Under the pieces are notes generated by a model. That model ran no database searches. It had not been told where the DNA came from and was given only the letters and a program-made list of their open reading frames with translations. This document shows, one piece after another, positions 39,940-53,396 of a DNA stretch of 53,396 bases. The position numbers and the translations under genes were made by a program. The stretch's first letter is position 1. Each line of letters starts with the position of its first letter. This stretch comes from an uncultured Candidatus Saccharibacteria bacterium (lineage in GTDB: Bacteria; Patescibacteriota; Minisyncoccia; 2-02-FULL-40-12; IGHO2-12-FULL-4): the NCBI GenBank assembly GCA_964580765.1, contig CAZOKW010000003.1, forward strand, positions 1-53,396. Direction: 5' to 3'.

Positions 39940-42624
39940 TTACTTAAATACTACAATAAATATCCCATCTTTGAAATCCACATTTATCACCGTTCCCCGC
40001 GCCGGCTTCTCCCGCAAGATCTCATCGGAGATGCGGTTCTCAATTTGTTTTTGGATTATCCTGCGCAACTCCCGCGCTCCAAAATGAGGGTCATATCCTT
40101 CTTCGGCAATTTTAGCGACGGCCTCCGGACTGATCTTTAAATCATAACCGGATTTATTTAAGCGGGATTGCAAAAATCCTAATTGCAATTTTACTATTTC
40201 GGCGATCTGTTCTCTGGGTAAACCGTGGAAAACAATAATTTCATCCAAACGGTTTAAAAACTCCGGCCGGAAATACTTTTTAAGCTCATCTTTAAGTTTG
40301 ACCCGCAAGTCCTCGTAAGCCATCTGTTTCTTTTCTTCTTTGTCCAGTTCGTGCTGAATAATATCAGAACCGACATTACTGGTGGCGATAATAATAGTAT
40401 TGGTAAAATCAACTACCCGGCCCTGCCCGTCGGTCAGTCGTCCGTCCTCCAAAACCTGCAAAAGGACATTAAAAATATCCGGATGGGCTTTTTCAATTTC
40501 ATCCAACAGAACGATAGAGTGGGGACGGCGGCGGACCGCTTCGGTCAACTGTCCCCCTTCTTCAAACCCCACATAGCCTGGAGGAGCGCCGATCAACCGC
40601 GCCACATTGTGCCTCTCCATATATTCCGACATATCCAGCCGAATCATGGCCTCCTGATTTCCGAACATCACCTGCGCTAAAGAACGGGATAATTCCGTCT
40701 TGCCCACTCCGGTCGGACCTAAAAATATAAAAGAAGCGATGGGACGATGCGGATCGCCCAAGCCCGCCCGGGACCGACGAATAGCGCTGGCCACCGCTTT
40801 GATGGCCTCTTCTTGTCCGATCACCCGCAAAGACAACTTTTTCTCCAGATTCAAAAGTTTTTCCCGCTCTTCTTCGGTTAGTTCACTGACCGGAATGCCA
40901 GTTAATTTGGAAACAACCTCCGCAATGGCATGCTCGTTCACCACCGGAATACTTCGGCCGATTGATTCCTGCCATTGGTCAAAAAGCTGTTCCCTCTTTT
41001 TTTCCAATTCACCAATCTCTTTTTTAATTTTATCCGCTTCTTTTATTTTCTTGGCTCGCTGGGCCGCTTCTAACTCTTTTTTAAGAGAATGGATATTTTC
41101 ATCCAATTCCCGTACCTCCTGCGGTTCGGAGGTAGATTGAATCCGCACCCGCGCCGCCGCCTGATCCATCAGGTCAATGGCTTTATCCGGCAAAAAACGA
41201 GAAGTAATATAACGATCGGAAAGCTCCGCCGCCGCCGCCAGCGCTTCGTCTAAAATCTTGATCCGGTGATGTGATTCATAACGATCCCGCAAACCGCGCA
41301 AAATTTCAACGGCCTGTCCTACGGTCGGTTCTGGTATGACAATCGGCTGGAATCTTCTTTCCAGCGCCTGGTCTTTCTCAATGTATTTTTTGTATTCTTT
41401 TAAAGTAGTAGCCCCCACCACATGCAGTTCACCTCGGGCCAAAGATGGTTTGAAAATATTAGCCGCGTCCATCCCCGATTCCCCGCCGGAACCGGTGCCG
41501 ACTAAAAGATGCAATTCATCTATAAAAATTATTAAGTTATCCCGATTAGCTTTTATTTCTTCAATGATAACCTTGAGCCGTTCTTCCAAATCACCCCGAA
41601 AACGGGTACCGGACATAATGGCCGCCAAATCCAGTTCCGCTAATCTTTTTCCAAACAATGACTCCGGCACACTGCCGGAAACAATGCGTTGCGCTAATCC
41701 CTCCACGATAGCGGTCTTACCAACCCCCGGCTCCCCGATTAGCACCGGATTGTTTTTGGTGCGGCGGGACAAAATTTCCACCGCCGTTTCAATTTCTTTA
41801 GACCGGCCAATAACCGGGTCCAGTTTCCCTTCCCTAGCCAACTGGGTCAGATCGCGGGAAAATTTGTCTAAAGTAGGCGTATTCATTTTAATAACACTCT
41901 CCGCTTTGCCCATCCCCACTTTTTTGATGATTTTCTGGCGCAAAGGGCCGGCATCGGCCAGACCATATCTTTTCAAAAGCTGACTGGCCAATCCCTCGCC
42001 TTCTTTAATCAAGGCCAGAACTAAATGTTCCGGGCCGATGTAATTGTGATTCAAAGCGCGAGCTTCGTCCAAAGACAGATCAAAAACCCTTTTCAAGCGG
42101 GGAGAATATTCTAATTCCTGTGGCACAGTTGTGCCCTTGATCATATTATCTTTGATCTCTTTTTCCAGTGATTTAACATCAATTTTTAACTGCTTCAGAA
42201 CGCCGGCCACGATCTCGTTTTGCAACAAACTAAACAAAAGATGCTCCGTATCGATCATGGCATGCCTGCTATCTTGGGCGAACTCCGCCGCCCGGTCTAA
42301 AATACCGTTGGCCTCATCGGAAAGATAATCTGTGAAATCCACTCTTTCTTCCGAGGGAGCGCGCATTTGGCCGGGCAAACCAAGTCCCTCCAATCCACTA
42401 CCACCCAGACCACCGCCCTGACCGCTTCCGCCACCTCCAAAAATATCTCCAAAAAGACCGCCAAAGATGTCATTTAAATTGCCGAACTCCCGGCCACTGG
42501 AACGACCCTGGGTCTTATTGGCGCACTGCTGGCAAATATCCTTAACCTGTTTGACGCCATTTTTTATAATGCTGATTTTGCCGCTCGCCCTATTCTTCTT
42601 ACAAATATCGCAAATATTATTCAT
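39940..42624 (-). CDS. clpB: ClpB/ClpC-type Hsp100 chaperone ATPase with an N-terminal ClpX-like C4 zinc ribbon and a Gly/Phe-rich linker
   Basis: Two AAA+ modules (GEPGVGKTAIVEGLA and FLGPTGVGKTELSRSLA), a coiled-coil M-domain, a Clp_N-like segment and GAPPGYVGFEEGG. The N-terminus CDICKK-x21-CQQC followed by DIFGGLFGDIFGGGGSGQGGG is unusual. Confidence 0.85.
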   Translation of the reverse strand: MNNICDICKKNRASGKISIIKNGVKQVKDICQQCANKTQGRSSGREFGNLNDIFGGLFGDIFGGGGSGQGGGLGGSGLEGLGLPGQMRAPSEERVDFTDYLSDEANGILDRAAEFAQDSRHAMIDTEHLLFSLLQNEIVAGVLKQLKIDVKSLEKEIKDNMIKGTTVPQELEYSPRLKRVFDLSLDEARALNHNYIGPEHLVLALIKEGEGLASQLLKRYGLADAGPLRQKIIKKVGMGKAESVIKMNTPTLDKFSRDLTQLAREGKLDPVIGRSKEIETAVEILSRRTKNNPVLIGEPGVGKTAIVEGLAQRIVSGSVPESLFGKRLAELDLAAIMSGTRFRGDLEERLKVIIEEIKANRDNLIIFIDELHLLVGTGSGGESGMDAANIFKPSLARGELHVVGATTLKEYKKYIEKDQALERRFQPIVIPEPTVGQAVEILRGLRDRYESHHRIKILDEALAAAAELSDRYITSRFLPDKAIDLMDQAAARVRIQSTSEPQEVRELDENIHSLKKELEAAQRAKKIKEADKIKKEIGELEKKREQLFDQWQESIGRSIPVVNEHAIAEVVSKLTGIPVSELTEEEREKLLNLEKKLSLRVIGQEEAIKAVASAIRRSRAGLGDPHRPIASFIFLGPTGVGKTELSRSLAQVMFGNQEAMIRLDMSEYMERHNVARLIGAPPGYVGFEEGGQLTEAVRRRPHSIVLLDEIEKAHPDIFNVLLQVLEDGRLTDGQGRVVDFTNTIIIATSNVGSDIIQHELDKEEKKQMAYEDLRVKLKDELKKYFRPEFLNRLDEIIVFHGLPREQIAEIVKLQLGFLQSRLNKSGYDLKISPEAVAKIAEEGYDPHFGARELRRIIQKQIENRISDEILREKPARGTVINVDFKDGIFIVVFK

Positions 42625-46739: not shown

Positions 46740-46751
46740 AAAAGCCCAGGA

Positions 46752-46782
46752 GGTCATGAGTGAAATGTTTCACCTCACGACC
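46752..46782. terminator. hairpin between the convergent cysS and flotillin genes
   Basis: ggtcatgagtgaaatgtttcacctcacgacc, about a 14-bp stem with one mismatch. Confidence 0.4.
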
Positions 46783-46802
46783 CCCATGGGTTAGGACTAC
46801 GA

Positions 46803-48812
46803 CTAGGTGTCTGTGGAAACAACAACCTCGCCGTTAGTTGGTTGCCCCGGAATCACGGCAGGAACCGTGGACTCTGGAATTGAAGCCGGCTTCATGTGTT
46901 TCAGAAAGCCGAACATCCCAGCACTGATGGCCGCCATTGGATCTGTTCCGCCGGCTCCACCTTGAACAAGAATGTCGGGAACGAATCGTGTCGCACTTCT
47001 TACGAGCGCGTTCACAACGTTCACTATCGCCGTCCCTTCGGCACCAAGAGCAGCAACCTGCTCCTTGTATCCCAGGGCCTGAGCTAGACCAGTGGCCTCG
47101 ATTTCGACGGCCTTGGCACGGCCGACCTCTCTGAGATAAGTGGCTTCGCCCCTGGCCGTCTCAACCCTGGCATTGGCCTTATTCTTTTCGATTGTGATCT
47201 CGACCTCTGAAGTGGCCAGATCTTTCTGCTTGTCGGCGAGACCCGTCGCTTTCTCCATATCAAGACGCTTTTCCTGAGATTCCTTCTGCTTTTCGAAGGT
47301 CTTGATCTCCTGATTTGCAATCTCACGTTCCTGGAGAACAACGACGATATCCGGAGGGAGGACGACATCCTGAATGTAGACACCGCGCGTCTCCACATTG
47401 TATTTTTGAATCTGCTCAGCAATGTACGCCTGAGCCGTTACCTGAACTTCAGCACGCTTCTCGATGAAATCGATTGCTCCCATGCCCTGGAGCTGGTCGC
47501 GGAAGTAGTTGCCGACGACCGCCTGCAGAACTTCGTTGACAAGGTTCTGCATTGTGCCAACCATGGAGATGACTTTGGGAGCCATCTTGTCGGCCACATG
47601 GATCTGAACCTGAAGGTCGATCTTGAAGACGAACCCTTCCTTCGATTTGGCTTCAATCTGGCTCAAACCCTTGTCCAGGTTATGTGCCTGGGAAGTGGCC
47701 GCAGCCCAATTGAGAGTCAAGATCGCCGTAGGAACGACCTCCGCAGAGTAGATCCGCGGATTGATGGCGTACTTGCCTGTGCGCAAAGGTTCCTGCCAGA
47801 TACCGCGATGACCCGGCTTAACGATCGAACCAAATTTGAACTCTGCGCCGGATGTGTCCTCGGTGGGCAGACCGACCGCGGCCTTGATAACCGCCACTTC
47901 GCCCTGCTTCACGACGAGCATCGGCACGGTCTCTACCCTAACGAGGTAAGGATTGACTGTGTACGCGCCGTAGAGAAGCGGGTCGTGCTGAAGACCGATC
48001 TTGCCGCCGTTGTCCAGAAAGGCCTGGAAGTCCTGGTAGTTGTTGTGGAGGTTGTTCTTATTACCGATGAGCACATCGGCAATATCCGAATCGCTCTTGT
48101 GCTCATCCTCCATCTTTTTTACATCATCAAAACGGCCAAGACGCCCGGCCATATCACCAGATGCGAGTGGGTCACCCTCGTTGGTGGTCACAATCCCCAC
48201 CATATCGATGGTCTTTCCGTCATCGCGTCTCGGCTCAATCAATGTCAGCTTCAGGTCTTCCGACTTGACACCAAAGTGTTCGGGACCGAACCTCCCATCA
48301 CGATATTGCTCGTTCACAGGCAACCCGAATTGCTTGCTTTTGGTCATGACGAGAAATGCGATGGGGTGAAGAGGCAGAAGTGCACCAGGAGGTAGCACGG
48401 GACGCTGAACGCCCTGCTGACCACCGTTTTCGAGAAATATCCGTAGGTCGGTGAATTGACCAAATTCAGATTTGTAGATGGCGGACTTGGCCCCTGTCGG
48501 TAACGGGCCGCCAATCTGCGACACAACGAGGCCAATCTCTCCCGGGGGAATCTGTACCCAAGGATGCCTTTCTACTTTGTAAAGGGGCCAAAGTTTGAAC
48601 GGAATGCCTGACATGAGCAGGTCGGCTTGGTAGCCGGACTCGCCGGTCAGGGAAATAGGCCCCGAGGATGTCTTCGTCTTGCCAAAACGCTTGGTAACAA
48701 GACCGACCTGGTCGGGGCCTATCTTGTGAAATGACATTGCAACGGTAAAAATGACCGCCACTGCCACCACAAGAAATGGTGAGTACCAAATCCACGAAAT
48801 CAAAGTTTCCAT
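46803..48812 (-). CDS. flotillin/SPFH-domain protein with EA-repeat coiled-coil; GC-rich (about 60%) gene
   Basis: N-terminal TM helix, SPFH domain, long E/A/Q-rich coiled-coil (EVQVTAQAYIAEQIQKYN...). A 60-nt sample at 47041-47100 is 62% GC against about 40% for the window. Confidence 0.75.
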   Translation of the reverse strand: METLISWIWYSPFLVVAVAVIFTVAMSFHKIGPDQVGLVTKRFGKTKTSSGPISLTGESGYQADLLMSGIPFKLWPLYKVERHPWVQIPPGEIGLVVSQIGGPLPTGAKSAIYKSEFGQFTDLRIFLENGGQQGVQRPVLPPGALLPLHPIAFLVMTKSKQFGLPVNEQYRDGRFGPEHFGVKSEDLKLTLIEPRRDDGKTIDMVGIVTTNEGDPLASGDMAGRLGRFDDVKKMEDEHKSDSDIADVLIGNKNNLHNNYQDFQAFLDNGGKIGLQHDPLLYGAYTVNPYLVRVETVPMLVVKQGEVAVIKAAVGLPTEDTSGAEFKFGSIVKPGHRGIWQEPLRTGKYAINPRIYSAEVVPTAILTLNWAAATSQAHNLDKGLSQIEAKSKEGFVFKIDLQVQIHVADKMAPKVISMVGTMQNLVNEVLQAVVGNYFRDQLQGMGAIDFIEKRAEVQVTAQAYIAEQIQKYNVETRGVYIQDVVLPPDIVVVLQEREIANQEIKTFEKQKESQEKRLDMEKATGLADKQKDLATSEVEITIEKNKANARVETARGEATYLREVGRAKAVEIEATGLAQALGYKEQVAALGAEGTAIVNVVNALVRSATRFVPDILVQGGAGGTDPMAAISAGMFGFLKHMKPASIPESTVPAVIPGQPTNGEVVVSTDT

Positions 48813-48887
48813 ACACTTCTCTTTCTACTATTTAAGGCATAGCTGCCATTTGAATTGTTTACGAACTAGGACCAATTGATGTTGAAT

Positions 48888-48918
48888 AGTATACTATATT
48901 ACTAATAAACTTGTCAAG
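48888..48918 (-). promoter_or_regulatory. sigma70-like promoter TTGACA-N19-TATACT for the flotillin gene
   Basis: Minus strand reads ttgacaagtttattagtaatatagtatact, about 75 nt upstream of the start at 48812. Confidence 0.4.
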
Positions 48919-48961
48919 ACCAGGTAGAAAATCGTCATTACTCCACATCTTATCCCCTTTT

Positions 48962-48985
48962 AAATTCCGTTGTGCGGAATTTTTT
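48962..48985 (+). terminator. rho-independent terminator-like hairpin
   Basis: aattccgttgtgcggaatt followed by ttttt. Confidence 0.4.
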
Positions 48986-49032
48986 ATTATAATGAGGCGA
49001 CCCATTAGAGTGCTTAAAGAATTTCAAGCGCA

Positions 49033-49291
49033 GTCCCACCCACCTTCTTTTCAAATATGAGCTCGCCGGCATAAATAAACGAAGATTTCTGAAATCAAGC
49101 CGGTAATAAAAATTGGGTCCGATGGTTTCGAGGGGTACTGAATTTTTGTCGGCTTGATGCGGTTAAAGTGAATTGTTTCACTTTAACCCCGAATTTTAGT
49201 CCGAGCTCCTGCGAGGACGTTAGGAAATTCGGAAAACCTTTTTATTGGCACGGCGAGTGATTCTTGAAAAGAGGTGGGTGGGGACGGAGCG
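49033..49291 (+). ncRNA. candidate structured element SE, copy 3 (divergent, with an extra internal hairpin), upstream of dnaB
   Basis: Shares ttcaaatatg, gccgg, ggtccga...gaggggtactgaatttt.gtcggc, gcgagga and cttgaaaagagg with copies 1 and 2. The 5' end gtcccacccaccttcttttcaa pairs with the 3' end cttgaaaagaggtgggtggggac. The inserted perfect hairpin is gttaaagtga/tcactttaac. Confidence 0.4.
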
Positions 49292-49318
49292 ATTTAGTTT
49301 CAATACTATCCAAACAAC

Positions 49319-50683
49319 ATGCCACAAAAGACCTCACAAATTTTTAATAACAGCCAGCTACCTCCGCAGAACATTGAAGCCGAGAAATCCACTCTCGGAG
49401 CTATTTTGTTGGATAAAGAAGCCCTCAACCAAGTGGTTGACTTTCTCCGTCCGGAAGATTTCTATAATCGCGCCCACCAGTTGATTTTCGGCGGCATGGC
49501 CGCGCTTTTCGAAAAAAGAGAGCCGATTGACCTTTTAAGTTTATCCAACAAACTGGACGAAATGGGGCAGTTAGAAGCCATCGGGGGAACCGGCTATCTC
49601 ACCTCGCTAATCAATACCGTTCCGAGTTCCTCTCACATCCTTCACTACGCCAAAATAGTGGAAAGAAAAAAGATTCTGCGGGACTTGATTGACTCGGCCC
49701 ATCACATTATCGGCCTAAGCAATCAAGAGGAAGAAGAAATTGATATTATTTTAGACCAGGCCGAACAAAAGTTATTTTCCATTTCCCAAAAATCAACCCC
49801 CTCAACTTTTGCCCACATCGGCGGCCCGATCATCAAAGAGGCCTTTGAACGCATTGATCGCCTGCACAAAGGCGACGGCAAACTACGCGGACATTCTACC
49901 GGTTTTTACGATCTGGATGGCTATTTGGGCGGCCTGCAAAAGTCCGACTTAATCGTTTTAGCCGCTCGTCCCTCTTTGGGTAAAACCAGTTTGGCTTTAG
50001 ATATTGCCAAACATGTTGCCCAGCACGAAAAAGTACCGGTTGGCATTTTCAGCATAGAAATGGCCAAAGAACAGATCGTGGACCGTTTGATCTGCGCCGA
50101 AGCCAACATCAATTTATGGAAACTGCGCACCGGCCGTTTGTCTTCGGAGGGAGACGGTAATGATTTTGAAAAAGTGGCCGTCGCCCTGGACCGCCTCGCT
50201 CAAGCCCCCATTTTCATTGATGATGTCCCCTCGCCCACTATTTTACAGATGCGCACCATGGCCCGCCGTTTACAAGCCGAACACGGTCTGGGTTTGCTGG
50301 TGGTTGATTACTTGCAGCTCATCCGGCCCACCAGAGCATCCGACAGCGAGGTCCAACAGGTGACGGAAATTTCCCGCAATCTTAAAGCCCTGGCCAAAGA
50401 GTTGAATATACCCATTCTGGCCGTTTCCCAGCTTTCCCGTAATTCCGAAATGCGCACTGACCAGCGGCCGAAGTTATCTGACCTGCGTTCTTCCGGCAGT
50501 ATTGAACAGGACGCCGATGTGGTGCTCTTGATCTACCGCGAGGATAAAGTTAAAAAAGATACCGAAAAAAAAGGGATTGCCGAAATTATGATTGAAAAAC
50601 ATCGCAACGGCCCTACCGGTAAAGTAGAGTTGTTTTTCGACGAAGAGAGCGTCTCGTTTAAAAATCTGGCTAAAGGGATATAA
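49319..50683 (+). CDS. dnaB: replicative DNA helicase
   Basis: N-terminal NIEAEKSTLGAILLD, Walker A AARPSLGKTSLALDIA, and the RecA-like C-terminal domain. Confidence 0.9.
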   Translation: MPQKTSQIFNNSQLPPQNIEAEKSTLGAILLDKEALNQVVDFLRPEDFYNRAHQLIFGGMAALFEKREPIDLLSLSNKLDEMGQLEAIGGTGYLTSLINTVPSSSHILHYAKIVERKKILRDLIDSAHHIIGLSNQEEEEIDIILDQAEQKLFSISQKSTPSTFAHIGGPIIKEAFERIDRLHKGDGKLRGHSTGFYDLDGYLGGLQKSDLIVLAARPSLGKTSLALDIAKHVAQHEKVPVGIFSIEMAKEQIVDRLICAEANINLWKLRTGRLSSEGDGNDFEKVAVALDRLAQAPIFIDDVPSPTILQMRTMARRLQAEHGLGLLVVDYLQLIRPTRASDSEVQQVTEISRNLKALAKELNIPILAVSQLSRNSEMRTDQRPKLSDLRSSGSIEQDADVVLLIYREDKVKKDTEKKGIAEIMIEKHRNGPTGKVELFFDEESVSFKNLAKGI

Positions 50684-50688
50684 GTTTC

Positions 50689-50839
50689 GCAGATACTGCC
50701 CTCTTCAGTACGCTCACTCCGCCAGCGTCTCCGTTCGCTCGCGGCGTCTGGGGATTTTGTCCGAATTGAAAGAGATTAATTATAATTCGTCCAAACCATG
50801 CAATCCCCATCCTTAGCGACTTCAGAGGGCAGTATCTGC
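50689..50839. mobile_element. family-4 palindromic element (TIR gcagatactgccctcttcag / cttcagagggcagtatctgc) in the dnaB-recR spacer
   Basis: 16-20-bp terminal inverted repeats. Core ggattttgtccgaattga...ttcgtccaaaccatgcaatcc is shared with 13788-13928. Confidence 0.6.
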
Positions 50840-50855
50840 TACGCTATAAATAACT

Positions 50856-51467
50856 ATGTCATCCAAATTTAAAAAGGCCGTCGAATATATCGCCAAACTG
50901 CAAGGCATCGGGCCGCGGCAAGCCACCCGCATCGCTCTGGCGGTTTTGAACTGGCCCAAAGAGGAAATCGCCAGATTTTCCGAAGTAATCTTTAACCTTT
51001 CCGAAGGAGTGAGCCTTTGCCAAGAATGCTTCAACTTCAGTGAGGACAAAACCTGCCGTCTCTGCTCCGATCCCAAAAGAGAACATGGTAAAATCTGCGT
51101 GGTGGAGAAAATCACCGACTTGGAAGCCATTGAAAAAACTGGCTTGTATCGGGGAGTTTACCATGTCTTGGGTGGAGCGATTAATCCTTTGGAAGGTTCT
51201 TTGCCGCAAAATTTGAAAATCAAAGAGTTGGAAAACAGAATTAAAAATCGGCTAGCCGACTACACCAACGGCTCTAAAGAGGAGTTGGAAATTATTATCG
51301 CCACCAATCCCCAGACCACCGGAGAAACTACGGCTTTGTACTTGGAAGAAGTTTTGAAGCCAATAGGGATAAAAATAACCCGCCTGGCCAAAGGTCTGGC
51401 CAGCGGGTCCACTCTAGAATACGCCGATGCGGCTACTCTGCATCATGCTTTTAAGAACCGGAAGTAA
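50856..51467 (+). CDS. recR: recombination protein RecR
   Basis: LQGIGPRQATRIA HhH, C4 zinc finger CQECFNFSEDKTCRLC, Toprim domain. Confidence 0.9.
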   Translation: MSSKFKKAVEYIAKLQGIGPRQATRIALAVLNWPKEEIARFSEVIFNLSEGVSLCQECFNFSEDKTCRLCSDPKREHGKICVVEKITDLEAIEKTGLYRGVYHVLGGAINPLEGSLPQNLKIKELENRIKNRLADYTNGSKEELEIIIATNPQTTGETTALYLEEVLKPIGIKITRLAKGLASGSTLEYADAATLHHAFKNRK

Positions 51468-51564
51468 TAGCTATATCCCCATTTGCCTCTTTTCAAGATT
51501 CCCTCGAGAGTAAATCCTAGTTTGATTTCGTCATAAAGCCTTATAAAAATCAGGTACCTGGAGG

Positions 51565-51727
51565 GCTTACTGATATTACACTCCTTCGGGACGCTGTGAG
51601 CTTGTGGATTGCTCGGTTGGTTGGAGTATAATTTTCTTACTCCAGCCAAATCCACAGGCGAACGGCGAGTGGGGGCCGCTCGCTGGAAAGCGGCATAACG
51701 ACCCGAGGGAGTGTAATATCAGTAAGC
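51565..51727. ncRNA. candidate structured ncRNA or MITE with a 26-bp closing stem
   Basis: gcttactgatattacactccttcggg pairs with cccgagggagtgtaatatcagtaagc (one U-G). Internal stems gcttgtggatt/aatccacaggc, ttggagta/tactccag and gcgag/ctcgc, plus cgctGGAAagcg. It lies in the convergent recR/rplU spacer. Confidence 0.35.
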
Positions 51728-51745
51728 TCAATTAAAAATCACCCT

Positions 51746-52066
51746 TTAAACGGTGATTTTTAGTATTTCTACTTTAGTTTCTGGCTGGCGATGGCCCTTC
51801 TTCTTTTTGTATCTGGTTTTAGAGTGGTACTTAAAAACAATCTTTTTATCGGCTCTCTGATGAGCTAATACTTTAGCCCTGACTTTGGCTCCTTCCACTA
51901 AGGGCTGGCCAATTTGGGCATTTTCCGGCGAAGCATTCCCCACTAGTAAAACCTCCGCAAAATCAAACTCCTCCCCCTCTGGAGTAGTTATTTTTTCAAT
52001 CAAAAGCTTGTCCCCCTCCGAGACCCTGTACTGTTTGCCCCCTGTTTTAATAACGGCAAAAGACAT
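51746..52066 (-). CDS. rplU: 50S ribosomal protein L21
   Basis: MSFAVIKTGGKQYRVSEGDKLLIEKI. Confidence 0.85.
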   Translation of the reverse strand: MSFAVIKTGGKQYRVSEGDKLLIEKITTPEGEEFDFAEVLLVGNASPENAQIGQPLVEGAKVRAKVLAHQRADKKIVFKYHSKTRYKKKKGHRQPETKVEILKITV

Positions 52067-52117
52067 GATTTAGAGATGATATCAAAATAAATGGAAAATG
52101 TCCAATTTCTAAGACGC

Positions 52118-52181
52118 AAAAAAAAAGACCCCCGAACGAAGTTGCGAGGGCACACAGCGTGCCTCTACTTCGTACGGGGTC
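52118..52181 (-). terminator. rho-independent terminator after the Clp-D2-like gene
   Basis: Minus strand reads gaccccgtacgaagtagaggcacgctgtgtgccctcgcaacttcgttcggggg followed by tctttttttttgcg. Confidence 0.6.
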
Positions 52182-52198
52182 AATCACGGAAACGGTCG

Positions 52199-53314
52199 CT
52201 ATCTCCCTGGTGCCGCAGAAAAGGTCTGCGACTCCTGTTCCTTCGAGAAAGTGAGCTTATCGCTCGACGGAGCCAGGTCGATCTTGATCACATCACCCAG
52301 GCCGATCTGACCTGTCGCGATCAGATTCGACAACGGATAGACGAAGTGCCGTTCGATGGCGCGTTTTAAATGACGCGCACCATACTTCAGGTCGGTACCT
52401 TCGCGAAGGAGAAATTCTTTCGCCTCAGCCATGCATCGGAAATAAAACCTAATGTCCAACGAAGACGCCATGATGCGGTTCTGAACTTCATTCAGCTCGA
52501 TGTCCAGCACCTGCCTCAGGTCTTGATGGTTGAGCGTTCGGAAAACAACTACCTTATCGAGTCTGTTCATGAACTCGGGCGAGAACTTGCGTTTCGCCAC
52601 CTCGAGAGCGGTATGGTACATCTTCCGGTCAATCGATTCGAGGTTCGATGCGTCGGTGCGCACACCGGAAGTAAAGCCGATTCCTCCGCTGAGCATTTCG
52701 CTCATCTCGACGGCTCCGAGATTCGAGGTCATGAACACAACGCATCGCGACAGATCGACTTTGCGATTATCGCCCAGCGTCAATGTCGCCTTATCGAGGA
52801 TGCCCAGCAGGAGCTGCCACAGGGCCTCGTTTGCCTTCTCGATCTCGTCAAACAGGACGAAGGTCATTCGGCAACGATCGGTTTGATGCTGGTCGATCGC
52901 CTCCTGCGTCAGCAAAGGCGGAGTCTCACGGTGTCCGAGATAGCCCGGAGGGGAGCCGATCAATTTTGCGATTTCGTGGCTGTGCTGGAATTCGGCACAG
53001 TCAAGTTTTACAAAAGCCCGGGGGCTGCCGAAGAGAATCTCTGCAGAGGCCTCTACCACTCTTGTTTTACCTGAACCCGTTGGACCCAGAAAAAGCAGGT
53101 TACCGATCGGACGGCCCGGTACCGCCATGCCGGCCAGATAGATTTGATACATGTTCACAATTCTGCGAACCGCTCGATCCTGGCCGACGATCTTGCCCGA
53201 AAGACGGCGTTCGAAGTCGAGAACTTCCGAACTTCTTATTTCAGGATCGAGGAGTACCTCTTTTTGCGTTTGGGGCTTCATAAGCCCTCCTTTCTTAGTT
53301 ATTTGGGGCTTCAT
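52199..53314 (-). CDS. stand-alone Hsp100 D2-like AAA+ ATPase (ClpB C-terminal module homologue); GC-rich gene
   Basis: VGQDRAVRRIVN, FLGPTGSGKT and LIGSPPGYLGH...VLFDEIEKA...VFMTSNLG match the ClpA/B D2 module. Visibly GC-rich by eye (not counted). Two tandem start sites. Confidence 0.7.
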   Translation of the reverse strand: MKPQITKKGGLMKPQTQKEVLLDPEIRSSEVLDFERRLSGKIVGQDRAVRRIVNMYQIYLAGMAVPGRPIGNLLFLGPTGSGKTRVVEASAEILFGSPRAFVKLDCAEFQHSHEIAKLIGSPPGYLGHRETPPLLTQEAIDQHQTDRCRMTFVLFDEIEKANEALWQLLLGILDKATLTLGDNRKVDLSRCVVFMTSNLGAVEMSEMLSGGIGFTSGVRTDASNLESIDRKMYHTALEVAKRKFSPEFMNRLDKVVVFRTLNHQDLRQVLDIELNEVQNRIMASSLDIRFYFRCMAEAKEFLLREGTDLKYGARHLKRAIERHFVYPLSNLIATGQIGLGDVIKIDLAPSSDKLTFSKEQESQTFSAAPGR

Positions 53315-53336
53315 AAGCCCTCCTTTCTTAGTTATT
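53271..53336. repeat. perfect 2 x 33-bp tandem duplication covering the RBS and start codon of the Clp-D2-like gene
   Basis: tggggcttcataagccctcctttcttagttatt occurs twice. On the minus strand each unit carries AAGGAGGG followed by ATG, giving in-frame starts at 53314 and 53281. Confidence 0.8.
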
Positions 53337-53396
53337 TGAAGTTAATTGTTAAAAGGGTTTTTAAACCCTGACTTTCTTACTTATATTATACTAAAT

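Follow-up and report, generated by a model that had tools for sequence, protein, structure and literature searches.

We describe two GC-rich genes in a 53,396-nt stretch of DNA (contig CAZOKW010000003.1 of assembly GCA_964580765.1, hereafter the window) from a low-GC genome of the Parcubacteria (Patescibacteria/candidate phyla radiation, CPR), one encoding an SPFH/Band-7 membrane protein and the other a stand-alone AAA+ ATPase. On the basis of their composition, their foreign codon usage, their phylogeny and their presence or absence at the corresponding, syntenic position in the related genome L013 (GCA_030695705.1), we regard it as highly probable that both genes are xenologues, i.e., that they were acquired horizontally, and they would have arrived through two separate events. 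Single-gene horizontal acquisition had been proposed in an original prediction made from the letters of the window, and the deviant composition and codon usage of the genes, their conflicting phylogeny and their patchy presence among relatives all agree with it. The two genes are as follows.

46803..48812, minus strand: SPFH/Band-7 (flotillin/YqiK-like) membrane protein, 669 aa (Pfam PF01145, E = 3e-18)
52199..53281, minus strand: stand-alone Hsp100 D2-type AAA+ ATPase, 360 aa (Pfam AAA_2 and ClpB_D2-small)

The GC content of the whole window is 0.435, or 0.429 when the two genes are excluded, and the 48 native genes defined by open reading frames (ORFs) range between 0.38 and 0.48 (mean 0.431, standard deviation 0.029, maximum 0.481). 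The coding sequence (CDS) for SPFH has a GC content of 0.538, with 0.621 at third (GC3) and 0.61 at first (GC1) codon positions, and that of the AAA+ protein 0.535 if taken as 52199-53314 or 0.538 if taken as 52199-53281 (GC3 0.63, GC1 0.59). These are the only GC outliers among the 50 genes (z = 3.8 each by exact calculation), which confirms the two islands at the positions originally given for them. The GC content of 55-62% estimated at that time is right for the sample at 47041-47100 (61.7%) and too high for the genes as wholes, which reach only about 54%, while the background, given as roughly 40%, is in fact about 43%.

A scan of the whole window with 1-kb windows and a 100-nt step gave the same picture, as each of the 15 windows with the highest GC started inside, or no more than about 100 nt from, one of the two genes, and the maximum elsewhere was 0.507. 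For both genes the step in GC is found no more than about 60 nt from the ends of the CDS, in keeping with the claim that the shift in composition coincides with the CDS boundaries. Codon usage also supports the islands. At two-fold codons, GC3 was 0.655 for SPFH (z = 5.9) and 0.562 for AAA+ (z = 4.3) compared with 0.312 (standard deviation 0.059) for native genes; the two genes favour AAG, GAG, CAG, TTC, CTC and CTG, the native genes AAA, GAA, CAA, TTT, TTA and TTG. Native codon usage is itself split, with a GC3 of 0.32 at two-fold codons vs 0.56 at four- and six-fold codons and a strong preference for GCC and ACC, therefore plain GC3 understates how foreign the two islands are. There is also a mild regional rise in native GC, from 0.42 at 1-39 kb to 0.45-0.46 at 39-47 kb and 48.8-52.2 kb, and clpB, hrcA, nramp and dnaB each have a GC content of 0.47-0.48.

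Relatives and likely routes of the two genes

Hundreds of protein clusters were 83-88% identical to the AAA+ protein, and a named cluster member came from an Acidobacteria bacterium. In one-genome-per-species data 596 loci were confirmed, and the best 80 of these belonged to Acidobacteriota (gp5-like, Terriglobia, Pyrinomonadaceae, Blastocatellia and Chloracidobacterium) with the exception of one Acidimicrobiia metagenome-assembled genome (MAG). Identity within the family was 83-88% in the closest Acidobacterial clade and 62-69% over the phylum as a whole. The neighbour-joining tree placed the proteins of the window and L013 as long-branched sisters, nested deep in a tight Acidobacterial clade. 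Apart from the window genome and the L013 lineage, no Parcubacteria were seen to carry the gene, which in L013 occupies the same site with a GC content of 0.536 in a 0.448 contig. The nearest relative, P0129, and other close ones lie on contigs of about 55% GC in which gene GC equals flank GC. Across Acidobacteriota the GC of the gene tracks that of its host, from 0.467 in a 0.434 context up to 0.615 in a 0.621 context, therefore the 54% observed here is a donor signature and is not intrinsic to the gene.

The Parcubacterial copies lack both the upstream DNA of the donors and the last ~30 residues. We propose that the donor was an Acidobacteriota member of about 55% GC from the clade that contains 'Acidobacteria bacterium 13_1_20CM_2_55_15' and gp5 AA68, and that the CDS alone survived the import, minus the ~30-aa C-terminal tail of the donor and with its composition still donor-like. 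It would have come to lie just after tRNA-Glu(CUC), with a native-type TTGACT-17-TATAAT promoter driving it, and would either have entered the lineage shared by the window genome and L013 or have spread across it.

Three observations concern the family outside Parcubacteria. The exception among the best 80 loci, L018 (CAVVYL010000062.1, the Acidimicrobiia MAG), is 68% identical, with gene and flanks both at 0.53 GC, and could represent a further transfer or a binning error. On the contig of P0129 (ENA ERZ1305449) there is a Phage_integrase fragment of 138 aa two genes downstream of the AAA+ gene, a possible hint of a mobile donor locus. The order dapA-bshC-GT4-AAA+ was considered as a functional link and rejected, since it occurred at two of 59 informative loci, in the nearest donor clade only.

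The SPFH protein of the window (P0001) forms a monophyletic group with P0002-P0007, which are 80-85% identical to it, in the neighbour-joining tree. This clade amounts to seven clusters among the 5.8 billion proteins searched, and a scan of metagenome contigs with the protein returned three loci only. Its sister is a large clade at about 70% identity that includes Vicinamibacterales MAGs. Phylogenetic placement of both proteins, with AAA+ nested in Acidobacteriota and SPFH next to a Vicinamibacterales-type clade, is thus in line with the proposed acquisition. The sampled Parcubacterial SPFH copies are found on contigs of 37-44% GC, with different neighbours each, and exceed the GC of their contigs by 8-20 points (gene/contig GC: L004 0.504/0.407; L007 0.474/0.396; L008 0.565/0.437; L097 0.577/0.376; L100 0.546/0.373), whereas gene and contig are alike in the ~70% relatives (0.62-0.64 vs 0.63-0.65). 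The L008 contig belongs to a Candidatus Yanofskybacteria (its SecD is 86% identical to that of the group), and tblastx of the low-GC SPFH contigs against the window gave no match outside the SPFH gene. The elements that flank the gene in the window are as follows.

46740..46802, minus strand: terminator hairpin and T-run of the SPFH gene, abutting the stop codon of the convergent cysS; part of the putative cassette
48813..48866, minus strand: 5' leader of the SPFH gene, GTTCGTnnAC ... GGCAGCTATGCC ... ribosome-binding site (RBS); no counterpart in L013
48888..48917, minus strand: native sigma-70-type promoter upstream of the SPFH gene, TTGACA-18-TATACT (promoter scan, 11 of 12 matches)

Two-tier terminator hairpins homologous to that of the window (CCCGTAAGGTCATG..GGTGAAnTTCACC..CCTTACGGG-T run) follow the SPFH gene in L008, L100 and L007, and the leader motifs GTTCGTnnAC, GGCAGCTATGCC and AATAGCAAGGAG are common to the SPFH loci of the window, L004, L008 and L100. 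Neither L013 nor the Acidobacterial loci had the leader motifs, and the Acidobacterial loci lacked the hairpin as well. When the window is aligned with L013, the leader stretch is a 39-nt window-specific insertion. The L013 homologue of the SPFH promoter sits upstream of orf187, and the window-specific DNA begins just downstream of the promoter. At the dnaB-cysS site of L013 there are two small genes of native composition, orf187 and orf85, with a cysS-side spacer of just 22 nt and no SPFH gene, and no trace of orf187 or orf85 was found in the window. Of the earlier claim that both islands have native flanks, the part on promoters stands, those of both genes being native and conserved in L013; the part on terminators is not supported, as the leader and terminator of SPFH are not native and travel with the gene.

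These comparisons suggest a cassette of about 2.1 kb (about 46740-48866), made up of leader, CDS and terminator, which would move sporadically among Parcubacteria and enter differing loci; here it would have replaced the two ORFs between dnaB and cysS, behind a resident promoter. No tRNA was found close to the SPFH loci. In L004, direct repeats of about 70 nt (L004:3985-4055 and L004:6170-6240, 91% identical by blastn) flank the cassette and may be an insertion footprint; no such flanking repeat was seen in the window.

The direction from Acidobacteriota-type bacteria to Parcubacteria rests, for SPFH, on composition and on rarity in Parcubacteria. The gene may instead have moved the opposite way, or both groups may have obtained it from a third, unsampled one. 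In favour of these routes, the Parcubacterial clade stands next to the Acidobacterial one as its sister and is not nested within it, and no donor above 72% identity is known outside Parcubacteria. We give these routes only a small chance, given that the Parcubacterial copies lie 8-20 GC points above their contigs while the Acidobacterial ones match theirs, and that more than 100 clusters and the deeper outgroups fall on the high-GC side compared with the seven on the low-GC side.

A native origin of the two genes, with their high GC caused by a gene-specific constraint such as expression, codon selection or amino-acid content, is in our view highly improbable. It could draw on the raised GC1 of both genes, on rplU, which tops the native two-fold GC3 (0.435) and hints at a mild preference for C-ending codons in expressed genes, on the GC3 still high in several Parcubacterial SPFH copies despite near-saturated silent divergence between them, and on a silent divergence of AAA+ that is lower than that of its flanks. 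However, the ribosomal protein genes, rpoA, mreB and clpB of the window have a GC content of only 0.39-0.48, therefore expression level does not explain the islands. Furthermore, both families are rare in Parcubacteria, the SPFH gene is missing from the syntenic site of the sister genome L013, the GC of AAA+ follows the host genome in Acidobacteriota, and the phylogeny places the AAA+ pair inside that phylum. A rough two-state amelioration estimate suggests that the present GC3 values are compatible with neutral decay from donor-like values, and we make no claim of selection.

The soundness of the contig was judged from other assemblies. Proteins of the window have exact matches in Parcubacteria group bacterium Gr01-1014_44 (GCA_007376105.1, contig VMFO01000002.1) and also match a 68-kb ENA contig, and the NCBI and ENA contig copies are 100% identical to the window with the exception of a 25-nt indel at 49036-49060. 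Logan contig L101 (SRR8863434) corresponds to window positions 51532-53298 at 100% identity and crosses the AAA+/rplU junction. In L013 the flanking genes are 70-93% identical to those of the window in protein and about 80% in DNA, in the order murE, tRNA-Glu, AAA+, rplU, recR, dnaB, ..., cysS, nramp, hrcA, clpB, and Logan contig L014 (SRR13727529) crosses both AAA+ junctions of the L013 version. A chimeric assembly or binning contamination, with Acidobacterial reads spliced into a Parcubacteria contig, had been raised in the original prediction and is very unlikely, to the point of being negligible: although the two sharp GC steps at gene boundaries, the Acidobacterial best non-CPR homologues, the incomplete independence of the identical window, NCBI and ENA copies (which may share one sample) and SPFH junctions that no independent-sample assembly crosses would fit it, it would need four breakpoints precisely at CDS ends with a working native promoter and RBS left each time, the proteins are only 70-88% identical to any Acidobacterial sequence, the SPFH protein has drifted in amino-acid composition towards low-GC usage, the SPFH cassette recurs with the same leader and terminator on at least five other low-GC contigs, and the AAA+ gene sits at the identical site in a separate species-level genome with its junctions crossed by Logan assemblies from other runs, making the junction evidence weaker for SPFH than for AAA+.

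The original prediction also took the acquisition to be recent, and this we do not uphold. L013, which also has the AAA+ gene, is about 20% different in DNA, and the silent-site divergence (pS) of the gene from all sampled Acidobacterial genes is 0.67-0.79, i.e., saturated. Among the Parcubacterial SPFH copies pS is 0.60-0.81, which is near-saturated, and GC3 is 0.45-0.69, which makes the initial transfer between phyla an old one, with GC3 decaying unevenly since.

Several points weigh against the two genes having been acquired in the way proposed. No AAA+ donor closer than 88% was found and silent sites are saturated against all sampled relatives, therefore the transfers were not recent. Both trees were built by neighbour-joining and carry no bootstrap support. 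A scan of 40 window proteins, which excluded about 12 smaller ORFs, gave no integrase or transposase domain, and no att-like direct repeats were found around SPFH or AAA+ beyond a 33-nt duplication at the RBS of the latter; of the marks of an integrase-type island, tRNA adjacency is thus present, for AAA+ only, and an integrase and att repeats are not. Lastly, pS of the AAA+ gene between the window and L013 is 0.43 while that of the flanking native genes is 0.58-0.70, which is unexpected under simple vertical descent from one ancestral insertion, although a simpler third-position measure gives a smaller gap (0.70 vs 0.51-0.68). The AAA+ gene may have passed from one lineage to the other once these had separated; alternatively, its silent sites may have evolved more slowly. 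The low pS was considered as proof that the two Parcubacteria exchanged the gene later on, but because of the smaller third-position gap we keep it as a hint only.

Structure and predicted functions of the two proteins

The AAA+ protein carries AAA_2 and ClpB_D2-small domains together with intact catalytic and pore motifs, namely Walker A (GPTGSGKT) and Walker B (FDEIEKA), the pore loop GYLG, sensor-1 TSN and sensor-2 GARHLKR, and the Arg finger NRLD, and it has a loop GGIGFTSG; it therefore has every feature of an Hsp100/Clp D2-type module. In NCBIfam its matches are limited to the D2 part of ClpB, ClpA and ClpC and lie far under the cut-offs, and the closest solved structures in PDB are the D2 modules of ClpB and ClpC. 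Identity as a ClpB was rejected, given one ring only, a score of 231 bits against a cut-off of 1232 for the ClpB equivalog, with only D2 covered, and the presence of the IGF loop. Identity as a ClpX was likewise rejected at 30.5 bits against a cut-off of 359 and with no zinc-binding domain, a Pfam scan having found no zinc finger in the protein.

In the Clp ATPases that partner ClpP (ClpX, ClpA, ClpC and ClpE), a surface loop with an [ILV]G[FL] tripeptide is the ClpP-docking site. In the AAA+ protein GGIGFTSG aligns with the LGF/AGF loop of ClpC proteins, which is missing in ClpB, and the tripeptide at the docking position, in the form [I/V/M]GF, is invariant in all 69 aligned family members. 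Because this loop is invariant and aligned with that of ClpC, a partnership with ClpP is predicted, and the motifs suggest a single-ring ClpC-D2-like ATPase that would dock ClpP in the manner of the ClpC D2 ring or ClpX. The protein would then act as a single-ring hexameric unfoldase, presumably with no ClpB-type disaggregase action. Counting against the ClpP partnership, no clpP was found among the 40 proteins scanned in the 53-kb window.

The window also holds a native clpB (39940-42624, minus strand), of which the AAA+ gene had been called an accessory paralogue. This description does not fit. The AAA+ protein is 32% identical to the D2 of native ClpB, which is gapped exactly at the GGIGFTSG loop, compared with 83-88% to Acidobacterial proteins; given this and its ClpC-type IGF loop, it is therefore no clpB duplicate but a xenologue. 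Native ClpB itself has 894 aa, with the best Clp_N match at residues 186-222 and the first AAA module from about residue 290, and its N-terminal region seems longer than usual.

The elements that surround the AAA+ gene are as follows.

52104-52076, minus strand: promoter of rplU, TGGACA-17-TATCAT (promoter scan), downstream of the AAA+ terminator
52119..52181, minus strand: GC-rich intrinsic terminator 3' of the AAA+ gene (GACCCCGTACGAAGT...ACTTCGTTCGGGGTC, then T9), read from the sequence
53273..53338, minus strand: perfect 33-nt tandem duplication (CAAATAACTAAGAAAGGAGGGCTTATGAAGCCC x2) that doubles the RBS and ATG of the AAA+ gene
53385..53396, minus strand: -10 box TATAAT of the AAA+ promoter

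The -35 box of this promoter (TTGACT, at a spacing of 17) lies past the window end, and the promoter is conserved in L013. Also past the window end, about 100 nt upstream of the gene, is tRNA-Glu(CUC) (promoter/tRNA stretch at L001:5320-5402; 924-996 in L013); inside the window ARAGORN found no tRNA. The 33-nt duplication yields two in-frame starts, for products of 371 or 360 aa, of which the upstream one arises from the duplication itself. The AAA+ homologues and the L013 copy begin at the downstream ATG, and the unit is single in L013; the start is likely at 53281 (360 aa) rather than at 53314 (371 aa). One Logan contig terminates inside the repeat.

The SPFH protein has a hydrophobic, helical N-terminal transmembrane segment (residues 2-27) and an SPFH domain at residues 300-511 (PF01145, 66.9 bits against a cut-off of 23.6), i.e., both the superfamily domain and the membrane anchor. 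A long C-terminal helix is predicted at residues 487-605, in a poor model (predicted local distance difference test, pLDDT, 49; predicted template modelling score, pTM, 0.29; alignment of 33 sequences). Homologues are labelled YqiK, HflC or SPFH in databases, while no NCBIfam model matched the protein and no PDB sequence matched at E <= 0.01. It is predicted to be a membrane-anchored scaffold of the flotillin/YqiK type. With flotillin-like proteins such as YqiK of E. coli and FloT of B. subtilis it shares the N-terminal anchor, the Band-7/SPFH domain and a predicted long C-terminal helical region, but at 669 aa it has an extra region of about 270 residues ahead of the SPFH domain.

Known systems and wider meaning

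The genomes of CPR/Patescibacteria are very small, and to our knowledge the hosts of Parcubacteria are largely unidentified. Imports from other phyla can reveal functions that CPR cells have added, in this instance membrane organisation and protein unfolding or quality control, and can hint at the organisms that share their surroundings. The present locus offers a worked example, with a sister genome that displays one insertion site before and after and a cassette that can be traced across Parcubacteria.

Single-gene transfers into Patescibacteria are known, mostly from within the phylum and occasionally from outside donors (PMC12455944, mSystems 2025), and Acidobacteriota are missing from the donor Table 1 of that study, with zero mentions in its main text. 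The genes described here resemble those transfers in that they too are individual genes whose composition is foreign to the streamlined CPR genome carrying them, and the SPFH cassette likewise appears to move mostly between Patescibacteria. They differ in that no integrase or mobile-element gene accompanies them, one gene being tRNA-adjacent and the other apparently having replaced two small ORFs. The SPFH and AAA+ imports are thus a fresh case of documented cross-phylum transfer into Patescibacteria and not a new type of element.

Among known ATPases, the AAA+ protein shares AAA_2 and ClpB_D2-small, the catalytic and pore motifs and the IGF loop with the D2 ring of ClpC, ClpA and ClpE (Hsp100 class I), but has one AAA+ module and lacks the N-domain, D1 ring and M-domain. 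Like ClpX it has one ring and the IGF loop, but it has no zinc-binding domain. With human CLPB/Skd3 it shares one ring of the NBD2 (nucleotide-binding domain 2) type (PDB 7ttr and 7us2, about 1e-31), but not the ankyrin repeats. No description of the family was found in NCBIfam, among solved structures or in a single literature search, and the family may be uncharacterised; with one D2-type ring and an invariant IGF loop across Acidobacteriota, it is a cheap target for biochemistry.

A bolder reading is that the shared Acidobacteriota ancestry of the two genes marks a physical association, as episymbiont and host or as neighbours, and, separately, that the ATPase stands for an unstudied 'mini-ClpC' class of single-ring IGF Clp unfoldases. 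We hold this combination to be speculative and rather unlikely; were it true, a genome-reduced soil or groundwater symbiont would have kept a 'mini-ClpC'.

Neighbouring non-coding elements

Between the SPFH start and dnaB, i.e., upstream of dnaB, lies a conserved, structured non-coding element (window positions 49033-49283, in plus-strand coordinates). Its predicted RNA fold has an energy of -114 kcal/mol (z = -8.8 vs shuffles), with a closing stem of about 20 bp that shows compensatory changes in L013 (a comparison of two species-level sequences) and an inner stem of 13 bp and core that are invariant (GAAATCAAGCCGGTAA ... GGGGTACTGAATTTTTGTCGGCTTGAT). Rfam searches at gathering thresholds were negative for the whole window, and so was a search of 48780-49340 at E <= 1. 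The 25 nt at 49036-49060, the 5' half of the closing stem, are missing in VMFO01000002.1 and present in the ENA assembly, which reflects either variation within the population or a difference in assembly.

Past the window end, an insert of ~210 nt (L001:5087-5300) separates murE from tRNA-Glu. It opens with a G11 run, and a long inverted repeat encloses it (GGGGGGCAATATGCTCT ... AGAGCATATTGCCCCCC). L013, in which the tRNA directly follows murE, does not have this insert, which could represent a small mobile element or else a structured RNA.

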